This document shows positions 35,666 through 64,000 of a stretch of DNA of 64,000 bases, piece by piece; the stretch's first letter is position 1; each line of letters begins with the position of its first letter. The position numbers and the translations under genes were made by a program. This stretch comes from Nitrospirales bacterium (GTDB lineage Bacteria; Nitrospirota; Nitrospiria; Nitrospirales; UBA8639), in contig OY820905.2 in assembly GCA_963555755.3 (NCBI GenBank), positions 960,001 to 1,024,000 of the forward strand. Reading direction: 5' to 3'. The notes beneath the pieces are model-generated. The model was not told the origin of the DNA. It saw only the letters and a program-made list of their open reading frames with translations, and made no database searches.

Positions 35666-35748
35666 CTGCCATTTCCCCATAAATAAAGACTGGACAATCT
35701 CATTCATCCTCCAGCAACGCGAACCCCAGGCACATGAACTAAAACTCC

Positions 35749-36747
35749 CCTGCATACCCGGTTGACACCACTAACCACAAGGGATAGTATTTAATGTACG
35801 TATGCGGCAATATCCGAGGACTATTGGAGAATTGCTAAAGCGTTTTCCGGACGAGGCATCCTGCCGTGATTATTTGGAAAAGATCCGGTGGCCAAGTGGA
35901 GTCCAATGTCCGCGATGTCAATCTCTGCGTCTGTGGAGGAGAATGAACCGCCCCGTTCTCAAGTGCGCTGATTGCGATTTCCAAATTTCTATCTTGGCTG
36001 GAACAATGTTCCAAGACACCAAAATTTCCCTGGCAATGTGGTTCCAAGCCATCTGGTGGCTCACGAATCAAAAAACGGGTATCAGTGCGATTGGCTTACA
36101 GCGGGCAGTGGGAATGACGCGCCACGAAACGGCATGGAGAATATTGCACAAACTACGCATCGCCATGGTTCGCCCCCATCAGGATCGTTTGTCTGGAGCA
36201 ATAGAGGTAGATGAAGTGTGCCTCGGTGGGGAAAACAATAAGCAGCTTATCGGAGTTGCTGCGCAAATTGATGGCAAGAAGACGGGCAGAATCCGCATGG
36301 AGAAAATTACCGATCGATCAGGCCCTGTACTACAGGGCTTTGTCGCAAAATACATCAATCCAGGAAGCACCGTCGTCACCGATGGACTGAATAGTTATTG
36401 GGGGGTGACGAATCAGGGCTATATTCATATGCCCATGAAAAAACCATATTCGTGGGAAGAAAAAGGGGGCGATGCCGATGAACTATTGCCGCGCGTTCAC
36501 CGGGTTGCCTCGCTCCTCAAGCGCTGGTACTACGGAACATATCACGGCAGAATTGATCCTATGAACCTGGATACCTATCTCAATGAATTCACGTTTCGAT
36601 TGAACAGACGCACCTCCACTTCGAGGGGCTTGCTTTTTTACCGTGTCCTTGAAAATGCCGTTGCCAAAGATCCCAGCCCCTATGCACCCCAAAAGATGCG
36701 CTAAGATACTACCCCTTGTATGTAGTGGCGTCAACCGGGTATGCAGG
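35749..36747 (+). mobile_element. IS1595-family element, transposase 35802-36704
   Basis: CPRC/C..C zinc ribbon; EVDE, TDG and YLNEF.FR.NRR motifs; TIR CCTGCATACCCGGTTGAC; 8-bp TSD (A/G)AAACTCC. Confidence 0.92.
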
Positions 36748-36881
36748 GAAACTCCGTATATCCCCGCCACAGGAGTTGATGACCTGGTGGCGGGTCGTTG
36801 TTACGTCCGAGATAGCCTCCGATCTTCGCAACCAGTCGCACCGCGTCACCCAACAGCAACGGAGGCTTCAATCGTTTTTTT

Positions 36882-41209: not shown

Positions 41210-42585
41210 TGTAGTGGTCTAGTTGAATGGGACACCTGGAAAAGGGACAATACCCATCAGGAGGGGTTCAATGGAAACAAGACGACGACAGTACACAGCC
41301 GCGTTCAAGCGCGACGCCGTGGCCCTGGTTATGGAACAAGGCTATACCCTGACCCTAGCCGGCCAGAATTTAGGGATCACGGCCAAATTGCTCTCGCGCT
41401 GGAAGCGCGAACAGCAGCACCATCAGGACGCGGCCTTCCCCGGCCAGGGGCATCAGACGCCCGAGCAATCCGAATTACGCATGTTACGCGAGGACAATCA
41501 GCGCCTACGGATGGAGCGCGACATCTTAAAAACAGCGACGGCCTTCTTCGCCACCCACAACATCTGAGATATCCCTTCATTCACCGTGAACGGCAGACGT
41601 ATCCTGTCCGGCTGCGCTGTGCCGTCTTCGAGGTGAGTGCCAGTGGGTATTATCGGTTTGTGCAACGTGGAGGAGGCCGGGCGCAGGCAGATCCAGCGCT
41701 GATTCTTCAGGTTCAGCAACTCCATCGGGCCTCTCGTCGCAGCTAGGGCTCGCGCCGACTGAGTCAGGCCTTGCAACAGGCTGGGCATGCGATCGGTCGC
41801 GATCGGACACGGACCCTGATGCGCCAGGCGAATCTGAAGCCCACGGGCACAGGGCGGTGTCCGCAGACGACGGATAGCCGCCATGCCTTGCCCCTTGCCC
41901 CTAATATACTCAACCGGCAATTTACGGTCGCGGCGCCTAATCGAGTGTGGGGCAGTGATATCACCGCCCTCTGGACCCAGGAAGGGTGGCTGTATCTCGC
42001 GATTGTGGTGGAGCTGTTTTCCCGCAAAGTCGTGGGCGGGGCCTGTGCGGCCTCCATGGCGACGTGCTGAGTCTCGCAGGCCTTGCAGATGGCCATGGGG
42101 CAACGTCACCCCAAGCCAGGGTTGCTCCATCACTCGGATCGCGGCAGTCAGTATGCCAGTGCGGAGTATCAACAGCAGCTCCGGAACGCCGAGATGGGGT
42201 GCAGTATGAGTCGGAAGGGCAATTGCTATGACAATGCGGTTGTGGAACGGGTATTCCGGAGCCTGAAAGAAGAAGGCTTCACGGAGGAACCACCCGACAC
42301 ACGGGCCGAGGCCACGCTAAGCGTGATTGATTACCTGGCGATGTTTTATAATAGTGAGCGGCTTCACTCGACCTTGGGCTATCAGAGTCCCAATACGTTT
42401 GAGGCACAGGCGGCGAAGACCGATCAAGGGAATACTCCAGTATCAACCAAACCGTGATCGGCCAGTGAGAGGCAAATAGGGACGACAAATTTTTCCCACA
42501 CCCAGGCCAAATCCTCAGCGAGGGCCGTCTGGGCTTATTCACACAATCCCCTTTTCTCCCTGTCCATTTTCACTGGACCACTACA
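41210..42585 (+). mobile_element. IS3-family element, decayed (orfA 41271-41567; orfB with stops)
   Basis: TGTAGTGGTC...GACCACTACA ends; W.SDIT, HSDRGSQY and GNCYDNA motifs. Confidence 0.92.
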
Positions 42586-47162: not shown

Positions 47163-47631
47163 CCTATTTTTAGGGACAGTTTTTAGGGACAAGGATAAGT
47201 TAATAATTTAATTGGCAGCGAGAGGTGACCGGGGTAGAGGACGGACGATGCCCCGACAAGGACGGCTGCCCATTGTGGGCGGCTGCTCCCACGTGAGTGT
47301 TTGGGGTTAGGTTTTTCAATACGACATACTTGGTAAAGGTAGCTGGAATCTTAATCGAAGTATTTTTGCCTGGGTTCGTCCAGGCAGCCGAGGCCCTTTT
47401 GTTTCGGCAAAAGGACCCAAAACCATTTCCACCCAGGTCGGCCACATTGAATCGTGCTGGCGCAGGCAACGGAAGGGCGCCCCAACTCGCAGGCTCAGAC
47501 AAGGGCCGCCCCTGGATTTGAGCGTCAGCCGGTGGGCCAACCTGCAGGCGGGGGGGTATCGTTTTTGGCCTTTTGCCTTACATGGAGTTTCTTGGCCATG
47601 GCGTTGCTTCCTGTGAGCGTTCTTGCTTGTG

Positions 47632-49665
47632 ATAGGGGTAGGGAGGGCGCATTGAGTTGCGCTCCCCCTCCCTCCGAACCGTACGTGCAGTTCTCCCGCA
47701 TACGGCTCTCCAGTCAGTAGGTTCCTATGGAGTGGACGAAACGAATATGGGCATCATTCAGGCTCGTGAACCCATGATCCGCAAAGAAGGCGTTCGGCCA
47801 CCGTTGATTGCGTGCGAGGCGTTGTCGATTCCTTCGGTTCCTTTTCAGAAGCATCCGGCGCAACCGCCGACGGATCATTCCATCGTAGGCCTTGAAGATG
47901 TTCCAAAAACAGTGCCGAAAGTAGTTGAACCACCCTTGCGTCGAGCGAGTGAGCCGGTGGAGAATTACCGCCAGCGAGTCGCCCGATTTCTGCGGCGTCA
48001 GCTCGCGGATGCGGGCGATGAACTTTCGGTGGCTCTTCGCTCGTGGAAACCGCAGCCGGCCTCGGAACGAATAGCCCAGAAACGAAAAGCTCTTCTCCCG
48101 CGAGTCCACGATGTGTGTTTTCTCGGGATGCAGTGTCAGCCCCTTGGCCTCCACCCACCGGCGCACCTCGGCCAGCGCCGCTTCGGCTTCTTCCGGCGTG
48201 CGACACAGGATGACACAGTCATCCGCGTAGCGCACCATCTGAAATCCGAGATCGGACATCCGATGGTCCAGGGGGTTGAGATAGACATTCGACAGCATGG
48301 GAGACAGCACCGCGCCTTGCGGCACACCGGCTTCCGGCGTCCACTCCCGCAGTTCTTCCAGAATCCCCTGGTTCAGACACTTCTTCACCAGGCCCACCAC
48401 ACGGCGATCCGAGATCTTCTGTTGCACTCTGGCCACCAGTCGATCTTTCGGAATCGTCTCGTAGTACTCCTGCACATCCGCGTCGACAACATACACATAC
48501 CCGGCGTCGAGCCATTCCTCGACGCACCGCAGGGCATCATGGCACCCGCGTCCGTGGCGAAAGCCGAAGCTTCGCGCATGGAACATGGCGTCCATAATCG
48601 GCTCAAGCACGTGGACCACTGCCGTTTGCACGACGCGATCCCGCACGGTCGGAATTCCCAACGGGCGCTTCGCCGACCTGTCGGGTTTGGGAATCCACCG
48701 CCGCCGCCCCGCTGCCGGACGATAGGTTCCGTCACCCAGTTCGGCTTGCAACCGATCGAGTTCCGCCCGCTCATGCTCGGCGAACTCCGAACACGTTTGC
48801 CGGTCAACGCCCGCAGCCCCGTTCTTGCCCAGGACCTTCTTGGCCGAGCAGGACAGGTTCAGGCTGCCAGACACCTTATCCCTCAACGTGTGCCATTTGC
48901 CTCCTCTCACGTTGTCTGCCATCAGTGTCGCCACCATGCGATCTGTCCACACCGCTCGATGAGCCCACTGGTCGATCCCAGGAAGCTCCCCAGCCGGGGT
49001 AGCCGAACACGGCACTGTGACGGGGATGTCATCTCGACGCGGGGTCGAGGCTTGACGTGTCGGCGGTTGAGGCATTTCACATCTACCTTCCTGCTCCCCT
49101 TCGCGCCACCGCGTTCTGGTGCACGGCTTCCCCGCTATTATGAGAGCTCTGACTTCTGTCGAGCCGCTTCATCCAACGTCATCGGTATCGCTTCGTTCGT
49201 TCCCCTGCGGCACGCGATACGGCACCGAGGGGCCTGGGCCATTGATCACGCAGCGTCCCCCACTGCGAATGGTCACGACACGGCGTCCACGTCCTTCACC
49301 CGACAGATCTCCCTGCTTAGCTCGTTTGACCTTCCGACCATTCCATCTCCAACCACCACCTTGCCATTTCGCCACGGTCGCTTTCCCACGTTACGTCACC
49401 GCCGTGACTTGCCGCGTCTATCCCCCGGGCAGACTCTCAGGTCGAAGGGATCTGCCGTCGCGCGATCAAGGGTTCGGACATCGCTAGGAGCCTCCCCGAC
49501 AGGCTTGGCCGAATCGAGTTCACGTTCGTTACGGACTGGTCGTTCGTCTCAGATTGCTCTCCACCCTTCCTCACGGAAACGCAGTGACCACTGTCGACTT
49601 CAGGCTGGTAACGTTCGCCTGAGAGGGACTTGCACCCTCCTGATCAAACGCCTTCACAGGCGCAC
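47632..49665 (-). mobile_element. Group II intron with RT/maturase ORF 49075->47714 (no endonuclease domain; missense decay)
   Basis: 5' GTGCG; domain V GAGCCGTATGCGGGAGAACTGCACGTACGGTTC; 3' end CCCCTAT; RPLGIP, PQG.VLSP and YADD motifs. Confidence 0.93.
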
Positions 49666-49850
49666 TCGCTGCAGCATCTCATGCTGCCTCTTCCTGGCGT
49701 CAGAGCCCCTTGGTCCGTGGGAAGAGGGCACGATACGATCGTGCAGCGACACAAGCAAGAAAGCTCACAGGAAGCAACGCCATGGCCAAGAAACTCCATG
49801 TGGCCAGAATTGGATGGCGGTAGGATAGAACCATATATTCTGTATGATCC

Positions 49851-50492
49851 ATCCTTACTCGCAGAGTCGGCCAGACCATCAGAATCGGAGACGACGTGTC
49901 CATTACCGTGCTCGGCGTTAAAGGCACTCAAGTAAAGGTCGGAATCAACGCACCAAAAACTCTTCCAGTACACCGCGAGGAAATCTACAGACGGATTCAG
50001 CGGGAGTTGAGCAGAAGCGGCAGAGTCAATCCCGCAAAAGCCATCAGGGGGTTGGTCAATATGGAAGAAGATGATTTCGATGAGTTCGTAGACACGGTTC
50101 AGGAAGTGACCAACAGGGGAATATCCATAGCTTGGACACCGGCTGGAAGCGACGACGTGTCGATCCAAACTCCTGTAGACGACGATGAAGCAAAATTGAT
50201 CGAAGACATAGCGGACCAATCGCAATTTTGGTGGAGTAAGACTACCTTGATCTATTTCTGCGCTGTCAATTGTGAGGAGGCTTTAAGCCAATCCCCCTTT
50301 CGCAAAGGGGGGCAGGGGGGATTTGAAGCGGGGCCAAGTGTGCGCGACACCCACGATAGTCAGAGGGAAAATCTCCCCCAACCCCTCTTTGTCAAAGAGG
50401 GGAGTTCATCCGACTTGGCTAGCCCGCATCGGTACGGCTCATCCGCGTTAATATCCTGCTGCTTCGTCATTATCCACAACATTTGCAACTGA
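49851..50492 (+). pseudogene. csrA: csrA lacking its start codons (found at 62129-62142), with a long C-terminal extension
   Basis: [36 protein letters not shown]...VHREEIY. Confidence 0.9.
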
Positions 50493-50716
50493 TCCGACAT
50501 AGCCAGTCATATGGGCATCTCCATCATCAGTTGGGCATACTAGCCAAATCCGATTTGGAATGCTGCCGGGAGGTTGAGATAATTGTGGTGTGAAAGATGA
50601 GCGACAACATTCTTACGGAAGAGGCAATGACTGCGCTTGATCGAGCCAAACAGATCGTCGCGGATATGGAAGAAATCAGCATCCCACACTCTGTCCGGGA
50701 AGAGTGTTCTGAGTTC

Positions 50717-50970
50717 TGTAGTAGTCGCGACTTAATCTGACAGTTACCGGTTAGAGTCGAGTGACTGTCAGGTCAAGTTTAAGCGATCAACTTTTCCCTC
50801 CAGATTTGTTTGCCGTCTTCCAATGTTTCCATCGGTGTTCGACCACAACACATCTTACCCTGATGAGTTCGTTGCGTGTTGTATTTCACCAGCCACTTAA
50901 CCAAGTCAACCTGAAGCGATTCTAGATCGCCGTAGAGCTTCCTGCGGAAAGTGGCCTGGTAAAAGGTCTT
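50717..50970 (-). pseudogene. IS481-family transposase C-terminus and right end
   Basis: FYQATFRRKLY...LQ.DL..W...YN..RTHQGKMCCGRTP; terminal TGTAGT. Confidence 0.8.
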
Positions 50971-51072
50971 TTTGACGCCTTCCGTCCCTATCGGGACGGC
51001 AAAGGAGCCACCAACTTCAACTCATGTTTTTAGCAATGAATGGGACATCCCCTTCGCCTCAACCCATTCGAA

Positions 51073-51558
51073 TCACCAGCTCGAGAAACCCCGCGACTTG
51101 CACCGGTTGTTGTTGAGGCTCGTGCCGCCCGAGCTGAATTTCGCACCCTTTTTAATTCCGAATTTGTAGTATAGCCGGCTACTCTTGCGGCAGCTCTTGA
51201 TGTCGCCTCCCTGTATCTCGATCACGAGCCAGACCTCGTCTCCTTCGTTGGGCCAATCATCGTATACATCAAGCTCGCAAAGTGCCTTCTGGCCACCGTT
51301 GTACCAGTTTTTCTCTCCATCGAAGATCGCGGAGCCTATCAACTTTGCGCACTTGGCACCGTATGTCTTCACGTTGCCAGTGTTCTTGTCCTTTACTTTG
51401 ATCTTGACATGCGCTCTATAGTCACCGTTGTGCTTCCATTCCAAAACCGATACCTGGTCTGCTAGAGCGACGCTGGCGGGCACCAGCAGAATCATCGTCA
51501 CAACCAGCATCAGGCACCAGTTGACCGACCCTGTCATGCAGTTCTTGTGTGTATTCAT
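51073..51558 (-). CDS. Small secreted Cys-containing hypothetical protein
   Basis: AAGGAG RBS; signal peptide ending ALA-D; paralogous fragment at ~60880-61055. Confidence 0.75.
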   Translation of the reverse strand: MNTHKNCMTGSVNWCLMLVVTMILLVPASVALADQVSVLEWKHNGDYRAHVKIKVKDKNTGNVKTYGAKCAKLIGSAIFDGEKNWYNGGQKALCELDVYDDWPNEGDEVWLVIEIQGGDIKSCRKSSRLYYKFGIKKGAKFSSGGTSLNNNRCKSRGFSSW

Positions 51559-52095
51559 CACCTTCTCCTTAGTGAAAATGTGAGTGTGTGCTAATGTTAG
51601 TTGGAAATTGAAGTGGCTCCCCCACCTGTGGTGAGATGGCGTTCGACAAAGAATCGACATCTCGTCAACAGAACAAAGGAGCCACTTCATGAGCAGTATT
51701 GCGGAAATCAAGAGACGAAGCAAGAAGGAGTCTCTTCCAATATGAAATGATACTGAAGGGAGAGCATGATTCTACCATGAAATGATACTGAACAGGGTCC
51801 GGGTTCTGTTCATGATGAGGAATGCACATCATCATGAACGACACAACAATTCATATTGGAAGAGACTGGGATCCCTTCACTTGGCGAATGGGCATCTGTG
51901 CGGCTCACCCTGGCAGATATTCTGCGGCTTAGTCCCCTTCCCCCAAGATTTCAAATGCGAGAACCATAAATTCTGTATGATCCGTTTATTCTGAGTCTTT
52001 TGTCGAAGGGCTCAAACAGTCTTCGCCAAAGTGTCGGATTCGGTAAAACGGTGAAACCGCGTCCGATGGCGGGAAGAAAAAAACATTCCAATTTT

Positions 52096-52410
52096 TTATG
52101 CAGCTGATAGAGGCGAGATACGGTCAATCTTCTTCTTGCTGGATTTTGCCGTCTCCCAAAGATCGGTGGCGTGTTGGGCGTTCAACCAAAATTCTGGTGA
52201 ATTGCCGAACAAACGAGAAAGTCGCAACGCCATTTCTGGGCTCACTGCACGTCGTTCCCGTAACAACTCATTCACGGTTTGGCGTGACACGCCCAACGCT
52301 TGGGCAAAACTAGAAACCGTCAGCCCGTAGTCAGGCAAAAAATCCTCTCGCAACATTTCACCCGGGTGTGTCGGACGAACCTTTCGCTCTTTTCGTCTAG
52401 GAATACTCAT
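52096..52410 (-). CDS. higA: HigA antitoxin
   Basis: PTHPGEMLREDFL and MALRLSRLFG.SPEFWLN motifs. Confidence 0.93.
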   Translation of the reverse strand: MSIPRRKERKVRPTHPGEMLREDFLPDYGLTVSSFAQALGVSRQTVNELLRERRAVSPEMALRLSRLFGNSPEFWLNAQHATDLWETAKSSKKKIDRISPLSAA

Positions 52411-52423
52411 GGGAGACCTCATC

Positions 52424-52705
52424 TCAGTGATAATCTGTTAACTCGACATCATACGCATCGCCATCCACAAATCGAAAACAAATTCTCCATTGATCATTGA
52501 CCGAGACGGAATATTGCCCAACTCGATCTCGTCCTAATTTGTGAAGCCGATTACTGGGAGGCACCTTCAAATCTTCCAACCGAACAGCCAAATCAAGGTA
52601 CTCTAATTTTCGTAAGGCTCGTCTCCAAATATCTGATGGGAATGGTTTCGATTTTCCATTCGAAAACAACTCTTCTGTGGCTCTATCAGCAAAGGTGCGA
52701 ATCAC
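52424..52705 (-). CDS. higB: HigB (RelE-like) toxin
   Basis: MI.TF, L..PP.NRLHKL and S.SVNDQWRICF...DYH motifs. Confidence 0.93.
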   Translation of the reverse strand: MIRTFADRATEELFSNGKSKPFPSDIWRRALRKLEYLDLAVRLEDLKVPPSNRLHKLGRDRVGQYSVSVNDQWRICFRFVDGDAYDVELTDYH

Positions 52706-53319
52706 AGCTCAATTGTAATCTGTCACGTGACAAACGTCAATTTTGATATATTCAGGCGTCATGAACCCTGGCTCTGGGATTTTAAAGCGCTCATCCTCAA
52801 AAAGCCCGGCGGCTCAACCGCCCTTCCTACCAAGAATCCGGCGGCTTTCGCTGGTATAGTCAGCGGCAATCCCTTTCCCAACCGAGTTTGGATTTTTTTT
52901 ATATGCGAGGTTTCGCCCCCGCGCGACGAGGCACTTTTGTTTCGGCAAAAGTGCCCAAAACCATTTTTTACGCATGCGCGGCACGACGGGGAACTGGTCC
53001 ACCGCCCCGAATCAGGATGGCGCAGAAACTCGCTGCGCTCAGACAGTCTTCGCCAAAGAGGTAGGATTCGGGGCTGTGGCCCAGCCGCGCCCAACGCAGG
53101 AGACGCCGTGCTAAATGAAGCCGTGGGCATCACCAATTGAAAAGGCAACGGTTCCGGCGTATTCTTCAGAAATATGGATGGCGTGTTATCCAGACAGAAA
53201 CCCGAAGATCTTTTTCTTACGCGGATCCATCTAAACATTGTTAGGCGCTCAGATATTTGTCGGCACACTTTCTTTGCCCGGTGTACTACTAAGTTGAGAC
53301 GTAAACTCGTTAAGCAAAA

Positions 53320-53432
53320 CTGGCCGACTGACTCGGCGACCTCCGCACGAATGAAGCTCGTACGGCAAACCGCAACTGCGCCAGAGAAGAGAGTTCAAGG
53401 GGCACTTCGTGACATTGGTGTGCGCTTTAGTG
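53320..53432 (+). pseudogene. Possible Vsr-like endonuclease N-terminal fragment
   Basis: SARMKLVRQTATAPEKRVQGALRDIGVRF resembles the Vsr start (S..M..+R...T.PE..+...L...G.RF). Confidence 0.5.
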
Positions 53433-53771
53433 TTGGACTGGGGTCAGTCTTGGAACACCGGACCTTTGGAACAGGGGACGCTACCCTTTTTAGGAGTGAA
53501 AGATGCAGGGTTTCGTCCCTGCAGACGACCTCCTTTTGTTTCGGCAAAAGGAGGCAAAACCATTTTTGCCCGTGCGTGACCCCAAGGGGGTCCCTGGACC
53601 AGCACCCCGAATCAAGATGGCTCAGAAACTCGCTACGCTCAGACAGTCTTCGCCAAAGAGGTGGGATTCGGGGCACTGGCCCAGTCGCGCACGAGGGCGA
53701 TGAATTGCCAAGAACAAAATTTTAGAGAAAAAGAAACGTGGATGGGGAAGCGTCCCTTTTTGTTTTTCTTT

Positions 53772-53971
53772 GTCATTTCGACCGGAGGGAGAAATCTGTG
53801 GTTCGGCCACAATAAAAGATCCCCGCAGCAAGCTGACGGGGTATTCAGAGGAACAATATGATTTTGAAAATCCCCCTACCCCCCTTTTCCAAAGGGGGGA
53901 CCTAAGCGGGAACCCCGTAGCAAGCTACGGGGAATACAAAGTTCAAGATTTCTCGTAAGACTCGAAATGAC
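53772..53971. repeat. Nested REP-like pairs: GTCATTTCGA outer pair, CCCCG.AGCAAGCT.CGGGG hairpins, and a central CCCCCTTT..AAAGGGGG
   Basis: Concentric palindromes; related units at ~34930-35107 and ~50290-50402. Confidence 0.7.
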
Positions 53972-54102
53972 AGGGCGGATGCGTGTGGCGCGGTCCGAGA
54001 AACAAGAAACATTGGAGTTCGTCTTTGGAGTTTTTTTTCTGTGGGCACCCCCGCCTTCGGATGCGGCGGAGGAACCCCCTTGGGGCCGCATACGGGCGGA
54101 CA

Positions 54103-54762
54103 ATCGACATAGGTAGGCGGTCACCCGCTTTCCCTGTCACACCACCGTACATATGGGTCCGTATACGGCGGTTCGGTGGGTTAAGCGATTGGCCACCAGG
54201 AGAGACTTCTCTCAACTGGTCACCCCTCGCCGGGCTTTCAACTGGGCGGTTCGCCGCGAGCGATTCGACACTTCCTCGTCAGTCCTTAGGGCTTCACCCC
54301 TATCCTCTGTCGGGAAGGCCAGGGTTAACTGGTTATTCAGCCGCTTGTCGCTCGTGAGTTCCGCTGCCTACATACCACTCCGCACCATTCAGGCCTTCAT
54401 CCCTGTCGGGACTACTATGCCCTCTGCTGACTCCTCCCGCCCGCTCTGAACTGATCACTCAGTCCTCAGTCTTGCTGCCAAGACAGACGAGAGGTCTCCC
54501 GAGGTACGCTCAACCGCCTTCAGCGCACGACCGCCAGATTTACACCCCGCCCCCTTGATGGATATGGACTTTGCGAATCCATGCTCGCTCGTCCGGAACG
54601 GACTGCCTCGTATCTGGTTCTTGTCCATCGGCCCGCGCCTTTGCTCTACGCTTCCTTCAGACCCCGCCTCACGACGACGCCCTTGCGCTTCGCGATGACT
54701 TCACCTCCATCAGGTTGTCAAAGGGACTTGCACCCTCAAGCTGTTGAACATGCTCGGCACAC
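54103..54762 (-). ncRNA. ORF-less group IIC intron (660 nt)
   Basis: 5' GTGTG; class C domain V AACCGCCGTATACGGACCCATATGTACGGTGGT; 3' ATGTCGAT; no room for an RT ORF. Confidence 0.85.
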
Positions 54763-55587
54763 TGGTTTTGGACACGTTTGCCGAAACAACAGTGCCTTGT
54801 CGTGTGGGGGCGACACCCCTTAAAAACATTCGGCTCTTCAGGAAAATTTGTGGGTCGAGCACCTAACGAATCCTTTCCAAGGCACTGAAAAACCAACGAA
54901 TTTTCCCACCGGGGACCGGTTTTATTTCGATGCTCATATTCAATTGACTCATGGGGAAGTTTCGGATCAGTTGCAATTTTGGTGGAGTCGAGGCCTATGG
55001 CGATGACGGACATACTATGCGAGGGGCTCCTGTTCTGATTTAGGCGTCCAATCCCGTTCCGTTCGTGGTGAGCTTGTCGAACCATGAATGGTACACATTG
55101 AAGTTTCTGACCCTTCGACAAGCTCAGGGCGAACGGATTCTGTCAAGGAAGGTCTGACTCAAGACGCGAGTCTCACTCCACCAAAATTGCGATTGATCCG
55201 AAGTTTCCCTCAGGGTCCACAAGCCGATTAAGCCTACGGTGCAGGGGCTATGGCATGTGGCCTTGTGGGAAACCTCCTGAGTAGCGCCCTTATGGGGCGC
55301 GGCCCACCCAGACGACGGAAAGTAACTCGTGAGGCAACTGAGGAGGCACAGGAGAGAAGAAAGGCCGAGGTCTGGTGAACCTGAATCCGTCATCCCCGAC
55401 GTTGGTTATCGGGGATCTATCTTAAGAACGAACCTGGATTCCCGATAACAGACGTCGGGAATGACGCGGGGAGGTACCTAGCGCCCTTATGGCGCGCGGC
55501 GCACCCGGACGACGGAGGATAGCATGAAGTTACTTAGGAGTTACCTGAGAAGTACCCACAAATTCTTCGGAGGAGCCAAACATTCTT

Positions 55588-55887
55588 CTACGAGAGACGT
55601 GGTTTCCAGGTATCAGGGTGACGGAAAAGGTGAAGAACTGCTAGGACTGTGACTTCTTCTCCAGTGGGGTTGAAATACACACCATATGGAAATCGGTGCA
55701 GTAGCGCACGACGAACTGGATCGTCAATGGCAGGAAATTGAAGCGGCATGGTGGCGACACGCTCGAAAAGAACAGACAGTTGGTCCAAAAACTCTACGCC
55801 CAAATTGCGACGCTGTTCTTCATACCATAGCGTAGCATTCACCACATCAAGATCGGCTTCTGGATGGAACCTGAGGGGAAGAGGCAT
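55588..55887 (-). CDS. RelE/ParE-family toxin
   Basis: F.PEA..D.....WYE, LG.EF, RRALL.RFPY and VLAV.H..R.P..W motifs. Confidence 0.88.
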   Translation of the reverse strand: MPLPLRFHPEADLDVVNATLWYEEQRRNLGVEFLDQLSVLFERVATMPLQFPAIDDPVRRALLHRFPYGVYFNPTGEEVTVLAVLHLFRHPDTWKPRLS

Positions 55888-56135
55888 TAATTGGATTGAC
55901 GGGCTTGGAGCTGCTGTTCGATTTCAGCCCGCACCTCGTCCCAAGATCTCCCTGCTTCAGGATGTTGCTCGAAATCCTGCAGCCGTCGACGAATGATATC
56001 AAGGTGCCAGTCCGGCGTGGATACCGCTTCGGGCGAAGTGGCAATTTGTTCCCAGAGGCTCTGGACATATTCGATCTGCTCGGGAACGGAAAGTTGAGCA
56101 AAGCCTGGTGGAGGACTGAGAGTGCGCTTTGGCAT
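55887..56135 (-). CDS. Addiction-module antitoxin
   Basis: LS..EQI..VQ.LW..I....P.WH..II.RRL and SWDEV motifs; TAATG coupling. Confidence 0.85.
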   Translation of the reverse strand: MPKRTLSPPPGFAQLSVPEQIEYVQSLWEQIATSPEAVSTPDWHLDIIRRRLQDFEQHPEAGRSWDEVRAEIEQQLQARQSN

Positions 56136-56643
56136 TATTGTGGATGCTCCTTCAAATAAAAGACTAGTGTACCGGAGATTCCTTCTGGGTTCAATCTGAG
56201 ACAAACCCCGAACTTTTTGGGAATGTTGTCAATCTTTTGGGTGTTTTTTTGTAAGCAGGGATTCGCCCCCGCAGACGACCTCCTTTTGTTTCGGCAAAAG
56301 GAGGCAAAACCATTCTTGCCCGTGCGCGGCCCCTCCGACCTTACTCAGAAGCAAGGTCTCCGGGGTCCCTGGTCCACCACCCCGAATCAAGATGGCTCAG
56401 AAACTCGCTCCGAGGTGCAAAGCCACCTCTCCACTCAGACAGTCTTCGCCAAAGAGGTAGAATTCGGGGGGGCGGTCCAGCCGCGCCCAAGGCAGGAGAG
56501 GAAAGGGAAATGGAGACAGAAACAAATTTTATTTGGAATGATCCAAGCCATTTGAGGCTTTTGCTTTCTTTGGGCATCACCGCTTTCGGATGCGGCGGAG
56601 CCGTAGGCGGAGGGACCCTCTTGGGGCCGCATACGGGCGGAAA

Positions 56644-56805
56644 ATCGACATAGGTAGGCGGTCGCCCGCTTTCCCTGTCACACCACCGTACATACGGGTC
56701 CGTATACGGCGGTTCGGTGGGTTAAGCTATCGGCAAACAGTCAATCGTGGAATCCCGAGTGAGTCGAAGTAGGCCTTGGGTAACGCAATCGTCAGGGCGG
56801 GACTC
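56644..56805 (-). mobile_element. 3' remnant of a group IIC intron (RT C-terminus, domains V and VI), cut by IS256
   Basis: SPALTIALPKAYFDSLGIPRL*; domains V and VI nearly identical to 54103-54185. Confidence 0.88.
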
Positions 56806-58140
56806 GAGGGTGTACGATTAACTGTGTAACTGGTTATCATGACCGTTCCATTGAATAAGGAGGAATGATGACCAGAGGTAAGACCCCAAGCCAAACGGAC
56901 GTGCTGCTCGATGAATTGGTGGAGGGCTGTGAGTCGTCCGACGATCTGTTCGGGAAACATGGGCTCCTGGAACGCCTGACGAAACGCCTGGTGGAACGCG
57001 TCTTGCGGGCGGAACTCACGGAGCATTGAGGCTATGCACCGCATGCCCCGGAGGGCCGGGAATCTGGCAATGCTCGCAATGGGTGTACGCCCCAAACGGT
57101 GCAAACCGCGAGCGGAGATCTTCCGCTCCAGGTGCCTCGTGATTGCCAAGGCAGCTTTGAGCCGATGGTGGGGCCCACACGCCAGCGGCGCTTGGACGGG
57201 TTTGATGACACGGTCCTGGCCTTGTATGCCCGGGGCTTGACGACTCGGGATATTCAGGGGCATCTGGAAGAGCGCTATGACGTGGAGGTGTCGCCCACGC
57301 TCATTTCGACGATTACCGATGCGGTGGTGGAGGATGTTCGAACTTGGCAGAGTCGGCCCTTGGACGCCGTGTATCCGATCCTGTATGTCGATTGCCTGTT
57401 TGTGACATCTCGGCAAGAGGGTGTTGTCAAGAATAACGCCGTGTCGGTCGCCTTGGGAGTGAACCTGCAAGGGGAGAAAGAACTCCTGGGACTCTGGGTG
57501 AGTGAGACGGAAGGCGCCAAGTTCTGGCTGTCGGTCTTTACGGCACTCCAGGGCCGCGGGGGCGAAGATGGCTTTGTGGCCTGCGTCGATGGGCTCGCGG
57601 GGTTGCCTGCCGCCTTGGAAACGGTGTTCCCCCCCACTCAGGTGCAACTGTGCATTGGCCATAAGGTCCGTCAGTCCTTGCGGTATGTGGTGTGGAAAGA
57701 GCGGCGGGCCGTGGCGCGGGATCTACGGGCCCTCTATGGCGCCGCGACGTTGTCGGAGGCGGAAGCCGCATTCGAGCGATTTGCCCCGACGTGGGATGCG
57801 AAATATCCGACGAGCAGTGCGACGTGGCGACGGGATTGGGCGCGGCTGACCGTCTTCTTTGACTATCCCCCAGCAATCCGAACAGTCAGCTATACGACGA
57901 ATGCGATTGAGTCACTCCATTTTTCATTACGTAAAGTCCTGAAAAGTCGCGGGGCCTTTCCGACCGATGAATCAATCCTGAAAGTGTTGTATCTCGGGAG
58001 GCTGCGGATTGCCAAAAAATGGACGATGCCCATTCCGGACTGGAAGCGAGCCCTCAACCAATTCGCCATCCTTTTAGGAGATCGGGTGCCAAGACGCTAA
58101 GCAAAGAAAGAATCAGTTACACAGTTAACTGGACAGGCCC
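56806..58140 (+). mobile_element. IS256-family element; transposase is a pseudogene
   Basis: IR G.G..TGT.C..TTAACTGTGTAACTG; EGAKFWL, VDGL.G and YTTNAIES motifs; in-frame TGA near 57028. Confidence 0.92.
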
Positions 58141-58281
58141 AAAATACTCTCGTTCGAGGTTGCCCCACACGCCACGATCGCCTCGCGACCCATACTCACG
58201 TATCCCTCCATTTCCTCACCCACCCGGTTCTTCCGCCTCCCTCGCCTGAGCTTCAAACTCATTGGGTCCGGGGTCAGGTCT

Positions 58282-59750
58282 CAATACTGTTCACTTAGAT
58301 GAAAATCTGTTATACTTCGCCTCCACACGTAATCTGGGAGGAGGCAACATGGCAAGAAAGAAAGTCGGCTTGGGGGCGGGGGCTCGATTGGCGGATTATT
58401 TGAGCACGGGATTACTGGCTCGTGCCTTTCCGGTGGCCATCATCAACGAAGAACTTGACGCACATCATTGTAACAGTGAACGTGTCCGCACCTTTCCCGC
58501 TTCTGCCGTGGTGTACTACACCATGGCGTTGAGCTTATACAGCGAGGCCGCGTACGAAGCGGTGTTTGCCGCTGTGGCCCAAGGGCTGGCATGGAAAGAC
58601 CACAAACCCGTTGCTCCCGTGACCGTTGTCAAATCCGCCATCAGCAAAGCCCGCTCACGGCTGACGTGGCAGGCGCTGAAAGCCATTGGACAGCGCTGCT
58701 TGCGCCCGTTGGCTCGTCCAGAGCATGCCCACGCCTTTTTTGCAGGCTACCGACTCGTCGCGATAGATGGCTCCAACTTTGAGGTCCCGGATGAGGAAGC
58801 CAATGTGCAAGCCTTTGGGTACCCAGGGAGCCGAACCGGGCAGGCCGGCTACCCCCAAGCCCAGTGCGCCATTTTGACGGAATGTGCCAGTCACGCCATT
58901 TTGGATGCCGAACTAGGGGCCTATAAGCAGGCCGAATGGGAGGTGGCCGCGCCCTTGGTGCGTCGCCTCACGCCCGACATGCTCTGCATGGCCGATCGCG
59001 GCTTTGTCGGGTACGCCCATTGGCAGGCCGGCCTTCAGACCGGAGCGCAACTACTCTGGCGCATGCCGAAGAGCTTGATCCTTCCAGTTGACAAGCTGTT
59101 GGACGATGGCTCGTACCTGAGCCATCTGTATCCCAGTGAACGCGCCAGAAGAAAGCGAATTGATGGGATCGCCATCAGGGTGATTGAGTATGTCTTACCG
59201 CAGGGGCCCAATAGCGAACCGCTGTACCGTCTCGTCACCACGCTGCTGGATGACCAAGGCGCACCCGCCCAGGACCTGGCTCAACTGTATCACGAGCGCT
59301 GGGAGGTGGAATTGGTGTTTGATGAGCTGAAGACGCACCTGAGGCAACGTCGTCGCGTCCTGCGCAGTAAAACGCCAGAGTTGGTGCGTCAAGAGTTCTA
59401 CGGATGGGTGATGGCCCACTACGCCGTGCGCTGGTTGATGTATCAAGGGGCCACCCAGGCAGACATCCCTGACCGCACGGTATCTTTTACGGCCACGGTG
59501 CAGTTAGTGCGTCGAACCCTGCCCCAATCTGGGGCCCTTCCCCCCTGAGCGCCAAAAAACATGGTATCGGCTGCTGTTTGAGGCGACGGCGAAACTGTTG
59601 TGTGAATCCAGTCGTGGAAAAATCAAGCCGAGGATGGTGAAACGCCGAAACTCTCCATACGCACCGTACAAACGTCCGAGACCGCCCGTTGCGCAAATTG
59701 ACTGGACACCATCCATCAAACCACCGAAGATATCTAAGTGAACAGTATTG
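58282..59750 (+). mobile_element. IS4-family element (1469 bp), second copy; transposase 58349-59548
   Basis: Same TIR as 23351-24819; 10-bp TSD GGTCAGGTCT. Confidence 0.95.
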
Positions 59751-59792
59751 GGTCAGGTCTCACATTCCTACCGGCCCTGTTGTACGCAAGCC

Positions 59793-59954
59793 ATGGCCAG
59801 ACCATTGCACCTGGAATTTGCGGGTGCGGTGTATCATGTCACCTCAAGAGGAGACAGACGCGAGGTCATCTCTCGGGCTGCTGACAATAGAGAACACGGG
59901 CTGGAAGTCTTTGCCAGCGTCTGTGAAAGTTTCAACTGGGTCGTGCAGGTGTAG
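59793..59954 (+). pseudogene. RAYT N-terminal fragment flanked by inverted GGTCAGGTCTCACATTCCTAC motifs
   Basis: MARPLHLEFAGAVYHVTSRGDRRE; motif at 59751-59771 is inverted at 59951-59971. Confidence 0.85.
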
Positions 59955-60353
59955 GAATGTGAGACCTGACCTAATACTCCGGACCCTTGTCATTGGATGA
60001 ATATCACCGACGCTCTCAGAGGAGAAATGAAGCGATAACCAGGCTTATCTATCAGGTGCTTACACAATGGCGGAATTCGGCGGTCATTTTTGTCTACACT
60101 GTATGGCGGTGAGTCGAGCCGTGCAACAATTTGAAGGAACACAGCATCCCATGTAGGAATGTTAGAACTGCCCCCCAACCGACCCCCAACCTAAAATCCC
60201 CCGCAGCGGGGGTGGATACGCAAAAACCAAGCTATCCTTCCTGGGCAATGACTGCTGTGGCTGGCTGCGACGCCGGTTGTAGGGTTTGCTCTGGTTTTTG
60301 TCCCTACGAGGTGGTATATTAGTACTTAAGGTATCAACCAGAAAGGAGCAATT

Positions 60354-60845
60354 ATGACTTACAAAAATGCAGTAGTGATCACGATCGCGATTGTTGGGTT
60401 TCTGCTGACGGCGTGGATGGCCCCGGTGGCCTTTGCCGGAAAATGCGACTTGACCGACCTTGACTGCTGGGGCCCGGATCAGAAGTGCAACATCAAGTTC
60501 AAGAACGAGACGGGCATGGGCTCAGGTTCCGGTGGCCGGACGGGCTACGAACAGATATCGAGCGCCGCAACGATCAAGCTGTCGGCCAGGAAGGAAGACG
60601 GGACGAGAGCGGGGAGAAACACGCTGCAGATTCTCGCAGGAGCCGACAAGACCATGAATCTCGACAAGAAGAATGATTTCAACAGCATACGGATAGACAG
60701 GCTCGGGAGCCAAGCCCAGCTATTTTGCCAAGACATAAAAACAACCTTGAAAGGCAACGGTGTCTGCAAGGTCTTCGTGGGCCAGATATTCGGCAAATCA
60801 CAAACAGTCGTCAACTGTGACAACGGCAACGTCCTTGGCGGGTGA
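60354..60845 (+). CDS. Secreted Cys-rich hypothetical protein (paralog 1)
   Basis: AAGGAG RBS; signal peptide ending AFA-G; CDLT.L.CWGP..KCNIKFKNETG. Confidence 0.8.
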   Translation: MTYKNAVVITIAIVGFLLTAWMAPVAFAGKCDLTDLDCWGPDQKCNIKFKNETGMGSGSGGRTGYEQISSAATIKLSARKEDGTRAGRNTLQILAGADKTMNLDKKNDFNSIRIDRLGSQAQLFCQDIKTTLKGNGVCKVFVGQIFGKSQTVVNCDNGNVLGG

Positions 60846-61116
60846 GAGCAAGACGCTCAAGCTGGTACCGGACCACATTAACTACGGGAGCGGTGACGAG
60901 CCCGTCTGCAACCTCACCGAGTACACCGAGATCTGGCTGCGAGTAGAGATCGCAGGCGGCGATATCGAATCGTGCCGCACGGATGGCAAGAAGTTCTCTT
61001 ACGCGCCGGAGGGCGGCAAGCGGCGGCACCACCCTGAACAACAACCGATGCAAGCCCGGGACCTACACACCCCTAGGGTGCATCCCTGACGAGAAGATCT
61101 CTAAGAGGAGGAGAAA

Positions 61117-61614
61117 GTGATGAAGACGCTCGCGATTTCTGCGTTTCTGCTGACCGGCTTGATCTCCTCGGCGGCCTCCGCCCAATGCGACCTGACCGGC
61201 TTGGAATGCTGGGGTCCGCACAAGAAGTGCAACATCAAGTTCAAGAACGAGACGGGCATGGGCTCAGGTTCCGGTGGCGGGACCGGCCACGATCAGGTTT
61301 CATCCGTGGCAACGATCAAAGTGTCGGCCCGCAAAGGGGATAATACGAGGGCGGGGAGCAACACGCTGCAGATCGCGGCGGGAGCCAACAAGACCATGAA
61401 TCTCGACAAGAAGCAAGGCTTTGACAAGATACGGATAGAGAATGTGCTCGGGGGCCGATCCCCCAAACTGACATGCGACGATATAAAAAAGACCTTGAAT
61501 GGCAGTGGTATCTGTAAGGTCTTCAAAGCACTGGATCCGGATGGGATACTATGGCTGGCCGTCACTTGCAATAATGCCGAGGTTGTTGTAATTGCCGAGA
61601 AGTTTCCCGAATGA
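61117..61614 (+). CDS. Secreted Cys-rich hypothetical protein (paralog 2)
   Basis: GAGGAG RBS; signal peptide ending ASA-Q; six Cys aligned with paralog 1. Confidence 0.8.
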   Translation: MMKTLAISAFLLTGLISSAASAQCDLTGLECWGPHKKCNIKFKNETGMGSGSGGGTGHDQVSSVATIKVSARKGDNTRAGSNTLQIAAGANKTMNLDKKQGFDKIRIENVLGGRSPKLTCDDIKKTLNGSGICKVFKALDPDGILWLAVTCNNAEVVVIAEKFPE

Positions 61615-62265
61615 CAACGATCTCGACGACCCACTTGCAGGCCTACCAGGCCGAGGGTATGAGCCACCGGCACCGTGCCGGTCTCTCCCGACGAAAGACC
61701 GCACAGTTCACTGGGCTATGGCCCGATCTGGTTAAATGAAGCTGCTAGACAACACCACCAGATTTAGGAGAGCCTCCACCAAGCGCAAGGTTGCAGTTCT
61801 ACGATGACGGATTTAGTGGACATAAAAGCCACCCCAAATCCTTCGGTTGGACTTTCGTTGAGATTCTTTTGATTCGGCACTGCTATGCTCGTCGCTCCAA
61901 AGTTCAGATTGCGGCATAGCGAGCGGGTGCCACGCATGTCGCAAGGGCACGTTATCTTAGATAGTGATATTCAACATTCTGTGTGATTCGACTCCTGGGG
62001 TTGCCCTCCTTGCTCCTGTCCTGGGTGCCACCTATGGCTAATTCAAGCTTAGGGACGTTCACCTAACTAGCTGTTTTGGTTGCACGCTCGATGATCTATA
62101 TCCCCTGAGAAGAACGAGGGACGCGGCGATGCTCATCCTTACGGATCATGCAGAATGTAGGGTTCTGGCAGCACAATACGATCAGGTGCACATAAAGTTA
62201 TGGCACTCCTCGTGGGTGATGTCGCCTCTCCTTTTGAGCGAATGGCGTCGTCTTGTATTTTTAGG

Positions 62266-62310
62266 ATAGGGGTAGGGAGGGCGCATTGAGTTGCGCTCCC
62301 CCTCCCTCCG
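62266..62310 (-). mobile_element. 3' end (domain VI) of a second copy of the 47.6-kb intron, acting as host for a nested intron
   Basis: 45 nt identical to 47632-47676. Confidence 0.88.
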
Positions 62311-64000
62311 GTAGGGTCGAGGACTGGCGCGCCAACGGTAGGGGTCGGTGGCTCCTCCACCCCTTTCAGAGTGGGCCTCAATCCGACTCCCCTGGTCACG
62401 GTTCCAGTCCCCGCCACCTCAAACCCGGCGTGCTGATTTCCAGCACCGGGCTTTCCTGGATGCTTCACCTCAAGGGTTATGTGACCTCTCAGCCTGGAAG
62501 GACTTTCATGCCGACCCGTTGTACCGCACTCGGTAATCTCCATATAAGCCGAGTACCGTGTAGAGCCAAACCTTACTCCACCTCTTCCAGCCAAAACCTC
62601 GACGGTGGCGCACTCGCATCATGTGCCGCCGGACCTTCCGCTCCACCCAATCCTTCACGTAGGAGAAACACCGACTCGCATGCCCAATCCGAAAGTCGTT
62701 CACCCAGCCCCGTACGATCGGATTGATCATCGCGATCATCCGTCCCACCGGCTGGGATTGTCCGCGTCGGAACACTGCCTTGAGCTTCCGCAGCCACGCG
62801 GTGCGCCGCTTCACCTTCGGTATGTACTGCGGGCGCCACACCCCACGCCGCGACCGCACACGCCGAAAGTCAAAGCCCAGAAAGCCGAAGCTGCCTCCCT
62901 GACTCAGGTCCACGATCCGGCTCTTCTCCTCATTCACCTGAAGGGCTCATTGGGCCAACGCCTCTCGCAGCTTCCGCTCCGCGACCTGCGCCAGTTGTGC
63001 GTGGCGGCGATAGCCATCCACTAACACGACGAGGTCATCCGCAAACCGAACATACTCGAGATACGTATACTGGCCCTGCCGGGTTGTCTCCTTCAGCTGC
63101 TCCAGCCTCTCATCCACTTCCGTGAGATAGAGGTTGGCCAGCAGCGGGGCAATCACACCCCCTTGAGGCACCCCACGCGGGCCGGACGCCTTGACGATGA
63201 GGTTCACCAGCCGCAGGATCGCGGGATCCTGGATGCGTCGGGCCACCTTCGCCAGCAGCCGGTCATGCCGCACCGTGTCGAAGAAGGCCGCCAGATCCAC
63301 ATCAATCACTCGCGTCTTGTTCTGCACCATCGCCTGAGCCACCCGGCCAATCGCCTGGTGGGCTGTCCGTTTCGGGCGATACCCATACGACCCATCACGA
63401 AAATCCGCCTCAAAGATCGGTTCCAGCAGGAGCTTGAGCGCTCCCTATACCACGCGGTCCCGAATCGCGGGTATCCCTAAGACGCGGACTCGTCCACCGC
63501 CTTTCGAAATCTCCACGTGCCGGTTCCGCATCGGTCGGTAGGTCTGCGTGACCAGTTCGTCCCGCAGTCGTGCAAGAAAGGGCTCCACCCCCGTGGCCTC
63601 GATGACCGCAAACGTCACCCCATCAATGCCGGGGGCTCCGTTGTTTTTCTTGGCCATCGCATAGGCCGCGCGTAGCGTCGCCTCTTTGCACACGTGGACG
63701 TACAGGCCCCACACCCGCCATCGCTTCTCAGCCTTCGCCTTGACGTAGAGCCGCTGTCGCAGGTCTTGCAGTGTAATGGACGCCGTTGTCATCTCGTCCC
63801 TGCCTCCCATGTTGATCACAGCCTACAGCCAGTAGGGCTCCTTTGCTCCACAGGCATTACCCTGCTTCCTCGCTCCTACGAGCCCCTCCGCCACCCTCTC
63901 GTCTTCGACTCACTTCCCAGAGAGCTGGTTATAGAGCCGATCTTCCTCCAGGGATTTCGCCCTGGGACAAGGAGGGCTTCTCCAGTTGCGTCGTCTGTCC
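62311..64000 (-). mobile_element. Group II intron (5' end beyond the window); RT pseudogene 63792->62506
   Basis: Domain V AAGCCCGGTGCTGGAAATCAGCACGCCGGGTTT; 3' GACCCTAC; LGIP.IRDRVV, PQGG and FADD motifs; stops at 63445 and 62947. Confidence 0.9.

Follow-up and report, generated by a model that had tools for sequence, protein, structure and literature searches.

A csrA paralog divided between two directly repeated MITE copies in a Nitrospirales chromosome, with the geometry of an integrated circle

In a window of 64,000 nucleotides from the chromosome of a Nitrospirales bacterium, an accessory csrA paralog is present in reversed order: its start is at 62129 and its body at 49851, so that the tail stands about 12 kb ahead of the head, and both halves adjoin a copy of one small mobile element. 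A single target-site duplication is divided here between two directly repeated copies of this element, the arrangement that an integrated circle shows. The most likely history is that the element, a MITE designated M, landed in csrA while the gene was on a circle, and that homologous recombination afterwards brought this circle into the chromosome in an Hfr-like manner; the chance that this reading is right is considered to be about even.

The reversed order of start and body, with all coordinates, had been described in an earlier note on this DNA and was confirmed in the sequence, as was the 8-mer ATCCTTAC at both junctions, on the inner sides of inverted ends. On the forward strand, the head (62116-62142) comprises the ribosome-binding site (GAGGGA, 62116-62121), the start codon ATG at 62129 and one copy of the 8-mer (62135-62142); the other copy (49851-49858) opens the body, which extends on the same strand from codon 3 to position 50543 and has no in-frame start. 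Each copy lies beside a 23-bp end (49828-49850 and 62143-62165), and these ends are mutually inverted, with 20 of 23 positions matching. Joining the halves in silico, with the 8-mer counted once, gave a product reading MLILTRR. Taken by itself, the body aligns with the 53-position CsrA profile of Pfam from position 3 on (E 1.3e-20); thus, exactly two residues, M-L, are missing from it. The paralog passes the curated cut-off of PF02599 (CsrA/RsmA; 73.5–75 bits vs. 27) and scores 93.8 bits against PRK01712 (cut-off 73). Of the 80 TIR-like ends that were scored across the chromosome, only the csrA pair has identical 8-mers on the inner sides, about 0.0015 such matches being expected by chance (10 × 10 unpaired ends). 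The 8-mer agrees with the target bias of M, which shows A/T at position 5 in all 16 distinct target sites and G/C at position 8 in 14 of them, the csrA site included. Within the body sits a second MITE of 283 bp (50213-50495) with an 8-bp duplication, GACATAGC, and TIRs resembling those of other ISAon1-type elements of the genome. For the csrA tail, a word search found no homologue, and nothing was found with this query in 60 relatives; a cold-shock domain was considered and is at most weakly indicated, with just 8 of 18 residues matching the CsrA-CSD fusion P0022 and no Pfam match.

The flanking 23-bp ends are the TIRs of M, a short, non-coding MITE of 308 bp with about 25 copies (20 two-ended and five one-ended, leaving out copies of less than about 85% identity). 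The left junction contains positions 124-308 of M (49666-49850), with the right TIR at the end, and the right junction contains positions 1-123 (62143-62265), with the left TIR at the start, both on the forward strand. Plain insertions with an 8-bp target duplication account for 16 of the 20 two-ended copies (14 exact, two with one mismatch); the remaining four have unmatched flanks. The TIRs match those of elements with an ISL3 domain (ISAon1-type), 16–21 of 23 positions being identical to TIRs of coding elements, and in other genomes related TIRs flank related transposases (similar ends at loci L028-L042, with an exact 8-bp target duplication at L040). Four other ISL3 copies in the genome also show an 8-bp duplication. 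M shares with ISAon1-type transposons (NCBIfam NF049917; Pfam DDE_Tnp_ISL3) and their MITEs TIRs starting with GGATCAT and the 8-bp target duplication, but lacks a transposase. Judged by its ends, M would be a MITE of ISL3/ISAon1-type elements, whose transposase may mobilise it. The single close transposase gene found is in an ISAon1-type element at C1:3186452-3187876 (TIR identity to M 20/23 on the right, 16/23 on the left). An ORF of this element reaches 430 bits with NF049917 and 156.8 bits with PF01610; the gene has its two ORFs in different frames, and the flanks are unmatched. The exact parent of M may be absent. A literature search by the name ISAon1 found no paper.

Two other candidates for the transposase were rejected. 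For IS1595, the check covered the gene found within a GGATC-ended MITE: it is part of an abundant IS that is nested there and whose own TIRs differ. The insert at 41210-42585 of the window, which from its sequence we take to be IS3-like, also lies inside a related MITE. The earlier note had invoked a replicative IS of the IS6 or IS1 type; on the evidence of the TIRs and insertions this was not supported, the ends being those of a non-autonomous MITE with ISL3-domain TIRs and mostly plain insertions. The ISL3 family is listed as copy-out–paste-in in PMC7986276 and PMC9333248; this assignment of the TIRs, together with the prevalence of simple insertions of M, was counted for the recombination reading.

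Alternatively, as the earlier note supposed with a different element, a transposase could have made the fusion, if a tandem M dimer or a replicative copy-in had been pasted into an intact csrA on the circle, with duplication and integration in one event. This is considered doubtful. It would yield the same geometry and flanking copies that are sisters in both MITE and intron, it could accommodate the four two-ended copies with unmatched flanks, and a precedent exists in IS30, where dimer integration yields a cointegrate-like fusion and, in PMC9333248, a possible extension to other copy-out–paste-in families is suggested. However, most M copies (16/20) are plain insertions, no abutted M-M junction is present, and no reciprocal flank pair besides csrA occurs among the ends; the close transposase gene, with its ORFs in different frames, unmatched flanks and a left TIR matching at 16/23, also speaks against it. 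Furthermore, a second csrA junction (see below), whose right side is longer and unscarred and which lacks both the intron and the 283-bp MITE, could on this view only be a subsequent copy made from an earlier state. That an intron-loaded ISL3/ISAon1-type MITE served its transposase as a means of fusion, the chromosome being pasted into the csrA-bearing circle by a tandem dimer, could be put forward only tentatively; were it so, a little-studied IS group would gain a further reaction. Literature searches found neither a natural cointegrate by a non-autonomous ISL3-type element nor a report of IR-IR-junction fusion by ISL3-type elements.

M carries an 84-bp hairpin, which was twice the landing site of introns, and both flanking M copies contain a group II intron of 2 kb, the two introns being sister copies. 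The left one, I1 (47632-49665, reverse strand, 2034 bp; RT/maturase ORF 47714-49075), has its 5' exon from M site 1 and its 3' exon from M site 2. The latter (47580-47631, reverse strand; M positions 208-259, inverted) is a foreign left flank gained via recombination within the intron. In its left part I1 resembles the site-2 copy, with which it has three SNPs in common (48530, 48691, 48911); the right part is sister to the intron of the right-hand M, with 13 common SNPs (48950-49283). The left-junction intron is thus an intron-intron recombinant, and homologous recombination took place there far from the TIRs, which was counted for the recombination reading; SNP 48143 is at odds with the crossover pattern and counts against it. 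On the right, the 3' end of I1 with further group II introns nested within occupies 62266-64000 (reverse strand); the nest ends beyond the window and is followed by M 124-308 (C1:1028918-1029102) and then by the 3' end of an IS91-type element. With the intron, the homology between the two sides grows to about 2.2 kb (2165 bp at 99.3%), a further point for recombination. The flanking copies are each other's closest sisters (seven differences in the 901 bases that follow the crossover on the right), as directly predicted by a transposase-made fusion or a duplication, and this counts against recombination. A test for a cointegrate by the donor duplication on the outer sides meets a left outer flank which was replaced via intron recombination. 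The circle proposed in the earlier note fits in its geometry; a transposase as its maker is unsupported, since homologous recombination gives the same footprint and is seen at the left junction. A literature search on intron recombination found no paper.

The order could also be an artefact, the true one being csrA start, M with intron, csrA body, with a circle opened or a crossover introduced at the 2.2-kb repeat during assembly. Short-read contigs reach just 27–29 letters into M per junction, where 31 letters were required for a bridge, and no contig crosses the whole repeat; moreover, the sample is heterogeneous, contig C2 being an alternative haplotype of C1:4141231-4153174. Nevertheless, a misassembly appears very improbable: a single contig of 4.6 Mb despite hundreds of IS copies would imply long reads, the assembly keeps the intron copies apart, each with its own ordered set of SNPs, and the structures on the left and right are unequal in length (2.2 kb vs. 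6.9 kb).

A second junction of M and csrA body exists at C1:3543577-3547623, 2.5 Mb away, with a different left flank. Such a flank is expected if a circle carrying M in csrA recombined with different M copies. The first 776 bases of flank are identical, but the M at this junction differs at 3 of 177 positions. Since a pair of M copies sharing one target site likewise shows 5 differences in 308 positions, gene conversion may explain the 3 differences, which counts against the recombination reading. The body there is an uninterrupted copy of 133 residues, without the 283-bp MITE and without the intron, and its right side is longer and unscarred. It lies, on the same strand, inside an insert of about 21 kb whose two sides adjoin in the relatives G002 and G003. 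The earlier note had named a second body and a second start as signs of a simple tandem duplication; the former exists (C1:3545914), and no second csrA start was found. A duplication without any circle would require that the csrA::M region was tandemly duplicated, that intron recombination removed the first head, and that M recombination deleted the second tail or shifted it elsewhere. Sister copies would follow from this, as would a join within the segment (scar at 51850) and a second body with a longer native right side, and trimming on the left did occur; but the position of the second body in the 21-kb insert on the same strand means that a single large exchange did not move it, and the scar resembles less a duplication join than the trace of a local loop-out, with two IS copies in inverted orientation as its ends. 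This course of events is regarded as unlikely.

The segment of 12.3 kb between the junctions (49851-62142) is a scarred mosaic and not a pristine circle, contrary to what had been supposed; 6196 of its 12292 bases are repeats present in at least two other places. A deletion scar (51850-51867) is present at 51729-51867: the left end of an IS481-like element stops at 51850, where the 17-bp tip of that element follows in inverted orientation; at the second locus the element is whole. The third inverted end noticed earlier (51961-51983) is real; it belongs, however, to a related 328-bp MITE, present with its right part only (51868-51983, forward strand), and as the far end of a composite it was rejected, no left end with a matching flank being found. 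The two toxin-antitoxin pairs reported in the earlier note are supported: higBA (HigB-like and HTH; 52096-52705, reverse strand), and a ParE-like toxin (21.5 bits, below the 23-bit cut-off) with an Unstab_antitox partner (55588-56204, reverse strand). Since higBA also occurs at an unrelated site in G002, it is likely a separately mobile cassette. Elements of the IS256 (Transposase_mut) and IS4 families occupy 56811-59750 (forward strand); the IS4 copy was dismissed as the join of the circle, the duplications being nearly alike at all 21 copies and hence uninformative. The segment also holds genes for predicted secreted Cys-rich proteins: Y (51073-51558, reverse strand), which has an allele of 90% identity at the second locus, and two paralogous genes X (60354-61614, forward strand), between which a frameshifted remnant of a Y-family gene is found (60883-61054). 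The three Cys-rich ORFs had no Pfam match. Genes for replication, partition, mobilisation or integrase were not recognised in the segment (ORF list; 13 window ORFs profile-scanned).

The best database matches to the CsrA domain of the paralog are 56–81% identical and gammaproteobacterial where named, and its identity to the native csrA is 39–42%. Together with the negative searches in relatives and family genomes, this makes the paralog and the Cys genes beside it look acquired, which was counted for an incoming circle. One Cys-protein family has members on both sides of the joined csrA, an argument which is weakened by further paralogs at C1:372-381 kb. X and Y were not found with these queries in 114 family genomes, and an atlas search with X gave only matches below 0.9. 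An intact csrA locus was not found in the 60 relatives, the 114 family genomes and two metagenome scans; among the joints listed in four of 12 runs (10 further joints unseen), none was that of an intact allele or a free circle. Allele differences between runs were not used, since the two Y copies may be collapsed into one in assembled contigs. Contig C2 was rejected as the free circle, being linear. In phage records, 88 entries match the CsrA domain alone, none with more than 80% coverage. The lack of an intact allele or free circle in these searches, together with that of recognised replicon genes, counts against integration of a circle.

By the recombination reading, M would have jumped into the accessory csrA while this gene was carried by an incoming circle of DNA, with duplication of 8 bp; recombination between this M and a chromosomal sister would then have placed the csrA tail after the left copy and the head before the right one. 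The chromosomal partner may have sat in the end of the IS91-type element, and a later intron-intron deletion could have taken away its left flank; neither this flank nor a matching IS91 left half was found in the genome. The second junction would be another integration, or a copy, of the same MITE-marked circle.

When a circle with a copy-paste IS recombines with a chromosomal copy, as in Hfr formation, a direct copy comes to stand at either end of the insert and the target duplication faces inwards. The csrA segment has the same direct copies and inner target duplication; here, however, the shared repeat is a non-coding MITE with a group II intron, replicon genes were not recognised and the left flank was later replaced. 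Cointegrates, pseudo-compound transposons and translocatable units of IS6/IS26, as treated in PMC7986276, likewise have direct copies flanking passenger DNA and a split 8-bp duplication, whereas M has 23-bp ISL3-matching TIRs, no transposase and mostly plain insertions. Dimer-mediated replicon fusion by IS30, a copy-out–paste-in element, gives the same product via an IR-IR junction according to PMC9333248, but such a junction is not present here. The csrA split is a clean natural case of a target duplication turned inside out, and a footprint of this kind on the inner sides is by itself no proof of replicative transposition. The hairpin of a MITE family with ISAon1-type ends attracts group II introns, and a 0.3-kb repeat becomes a recombination substrate of 2.3 kb. 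The rearrangement is of an ordinary kind in a genome full of mobile DNA. For the cell, the effect is probably nil, since only a spare paralog is broken and the native csrA, which is linked to fliW (C1:4482723), is intact.

The earlier note had placed the two halves of a split csrA gene correctly, as was found when the window sequence was re-checked: the ribosome binding site and first codons end at 62142, and the body of the gene, which alone matches the Pfam CsrA profile starting at profile position 3, begins at 49851. The 8-mer ATCCTTAC is present on both halves, with a 23-bp end bordering each of them; a joined reading frame was obtained by counting the 8-mer once. Among 80 chromosomal ends resembling these terminal inverted repeats (TIRs), the csrA pair alone had the same 8-mer at its two inner sides, for which the chance expectation is about 0.0015. 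In contigs of three sequencing runs from two studies (X1, X2 and X5), one of which may be the source sample, the csrA start was seen fused to the MITE end, with a depth close to that of the adjoining unique DNA; the junction of the csrA body was also present in contigs of X2 and X5. The contigs back the junctions but not the long-range order, since they extend only 27–29 letters into the repeat; a misassembly is considered very improbable, and the split csrA is a real, neat footprint of a rearrangement of a known kind. A 14.1-kb contig (C2) represents an alternative haplotype, which consists of a copy of C1:4141231-4153174 (C1, chromosome contig) fused to a portion of a 2.6-kb IS; this points to IS polymorphism within the population that was sequenced.

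The ends flanking csrA come from M, a non-coding element of 308 bp, of which they form the TIRs; 20 two-ended and 5 one-ended copies of M were counted in the genome (relatives below about 85% identity excluded). An exact 8-bp target duplication was present at 14 copies, one with a single mismatch at 2, and unrelated flanks at 4; M-like copies also occur in the relative G002. Ends of this kind belong to ISL3-domain elements, including related elements from other genomes, and an ISAon1-family transposase (NF049917, 430 bits; PF01610, 156.8 bits) is encoded at C1:3186452-3187876 in an element whose TIRs match those of M at 20/23 and 16/23 positions. In a database comparison, the closest relatives of the transposase came from Nitrospirae records. 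We infer that this transposase moves M; ISL3 is listed among copy-out–paste-in families (PMC7986276, PMC9333248). An IS1595 gene was rejected as parent of M, being a nested IS with different ends. The IS1595 DDE family has 70 matches genome-wide, roughly 40 of which are near-identical copies of a single 1-kb element, and one more IS1595 element is located at window 35748-36748. M is also inserted at the same site in two ISAon1-type transposase gene copies (C1:2522230-2522537 and 2535617-2535924); thus, the MITE interrupts genes of the very group that is its likely parent. Differences between M copies genome-wide are mostly G/T and C/A and recur at positions 55, 75, 76, 131, 214 and 220, a pattern which suggests gene conversion or a biased mutation spectrum.

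At the left junction, M 124-308 (49666-49850) is directly preceded by a 2034-bp group II intron (47632-49665). M offers this intron two landing sites, one at each end of an 84-bp hairpin, and the intron is oriented oppositely at the two. The hairpin corresponds to M 124-207 (window 49666-49749), insertion being right after it on both strands; its first 25–30 bases recur many times in two other genomes, G017 and G023. The intron copy in the window has its 5' exon from one M site and its 3' exon (47580-47631) from the other, and its SNPs are of the site-2 type up to 48911 (3 sites) and of the type of the right-hand copy from 48950 (13 sites), with one site disagreeing. The mixed exons and the switch of SNP type therefore indicate recombination inside the intron, at a point far from any TIR, which replaced the original left flank. 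At the right junction, M 1-123 (62143-62265) leads into a copy of the same intron that contains other, nested introns. Beyond it lie M 124-308 (C1:1028918-1029102) and an IS91-type element's 3' end, the left half of this element being absent from the genome; one deletion, with direct intron copies as its endpoints, would account for the loss of this half and also of the part of the site-2 M that is missing. The M::intron copies on the two sides are sisters, 99.3% identical over 2165 bp, with 7 differences in the 901 bases right of the crossover.

The most likely route, held with moderate confidence, would be insertion of M into csrA on an acquired circle, followed by integration of the circle by homologous recombination with a sister M::intron, a route analogous to Hfr formation. 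The only kinds of step that it requires, simple insertion of M and exchange between M copies, were both seen here, and it would explain a second junction in which the identical 8-bp site follows another flank. On the other side, no circle or intact allele turned up in the runs and metagenome scans, no replicon gene was recognised among the ORFs scanned, and the sister identity of the flanking copies would follow just as well from a transposase-made fusion, such as IS30 dimers can produce (PMC9333248). A fusion of this kind, which corresponds, with a different element, to the integration proposed in the earlier note, is considered rather unlikely. The one point of value here is a possible fusion of replicons through transposition of ISAon1-type MITEs.

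A genome search yielded two csrA bodies in addition to the native csrA. At C1:3543577-3547623 the same csrA body, with a further stretch of about 1.7 kb, lies after a whole M that has a left flank different from that in the window; the intron and the 283-bp MITE of the window's csrA body are missing from this copy; an IS481-like element is whole there and cut at 51850 in the window. This copy lies within an insert of roughly 21 kb, whose two sides are adjacent in G002 and in another relative, G003. A second body together with a second start had been named as the sign of a simple tandem duplication; the body was found but the start was not, since in the MITE catalogue a csrA start precedes one left end only. 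Tandem duplication with trimming would explain the second body, the position of which fits poorly, and we consider it somewhat less probable still than a transposase-made fusion. The two copies of the csrA-body region are identical in their first 776 and last 193 bases and have 34 differences between (window 50918-51657 against C1:3546690-3547430); in the Cys-rich gene there, 16 codons alter the residue and 3 are silent, which suggests diversification or allele exchange. Within M's right TIR, 8 bases from its tip, a different group II intron is located at C1:3543877-3545905, and M-like ends near C1:3024600 and C1:4119300 adjoin genes of similar introns. A 1.8-kb duplication (C1:68602-70373 and 74815-76588) terminates exactly at an M right end, its first copy being joined to a flank without other occurrence in the genome; it is a second M-bounded rearrangement.

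Repeats occurring at two or more other places make up 6196 of the 12292 bases of the segment (49851-62142); among them are elements of the IS256 and IS4 families, pieces of introns and short repeats. higBA is also present at an unrelated site in G002, and at a scar (51850-51867) the left end of an IS meets the tip of that IS in inverted orientation. Thus, a circle is a fair model of the geometry, but the 12.3 kb seen today no longer has the form of that circle. Two stretches look native: the 2 kb or so before the csrA start, which hold a remnant and two Cys-rich genes, and some 1.7 kb past the csrA body, with one Cys-rich gene related to the remnant. None of these parts was found in the relatives searched, and the whole area sits at a synteny break relative to G003. 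An array of at least six further members of the Y family of predicted secreted Cys-rich proteins, sharing a C-terminal GT(T/S)LN(N/G)NRC motif, is located at C1:372111-380771; its members were not found in 114 family genomes.

The interrupted csrA is a spare paralog into which two elements have inserted; at the native fliW-csrA locus the gene is intact. The accessory CsrA (49851-50543) has an acidic tail of approximately 80 residues, for which no homologue was found; it has a faint likeness to a CsrA-cold-shock-domain fusion protein (P0022). The database also contains tandem CsrA-CsrA proteins (P0001, P0002).
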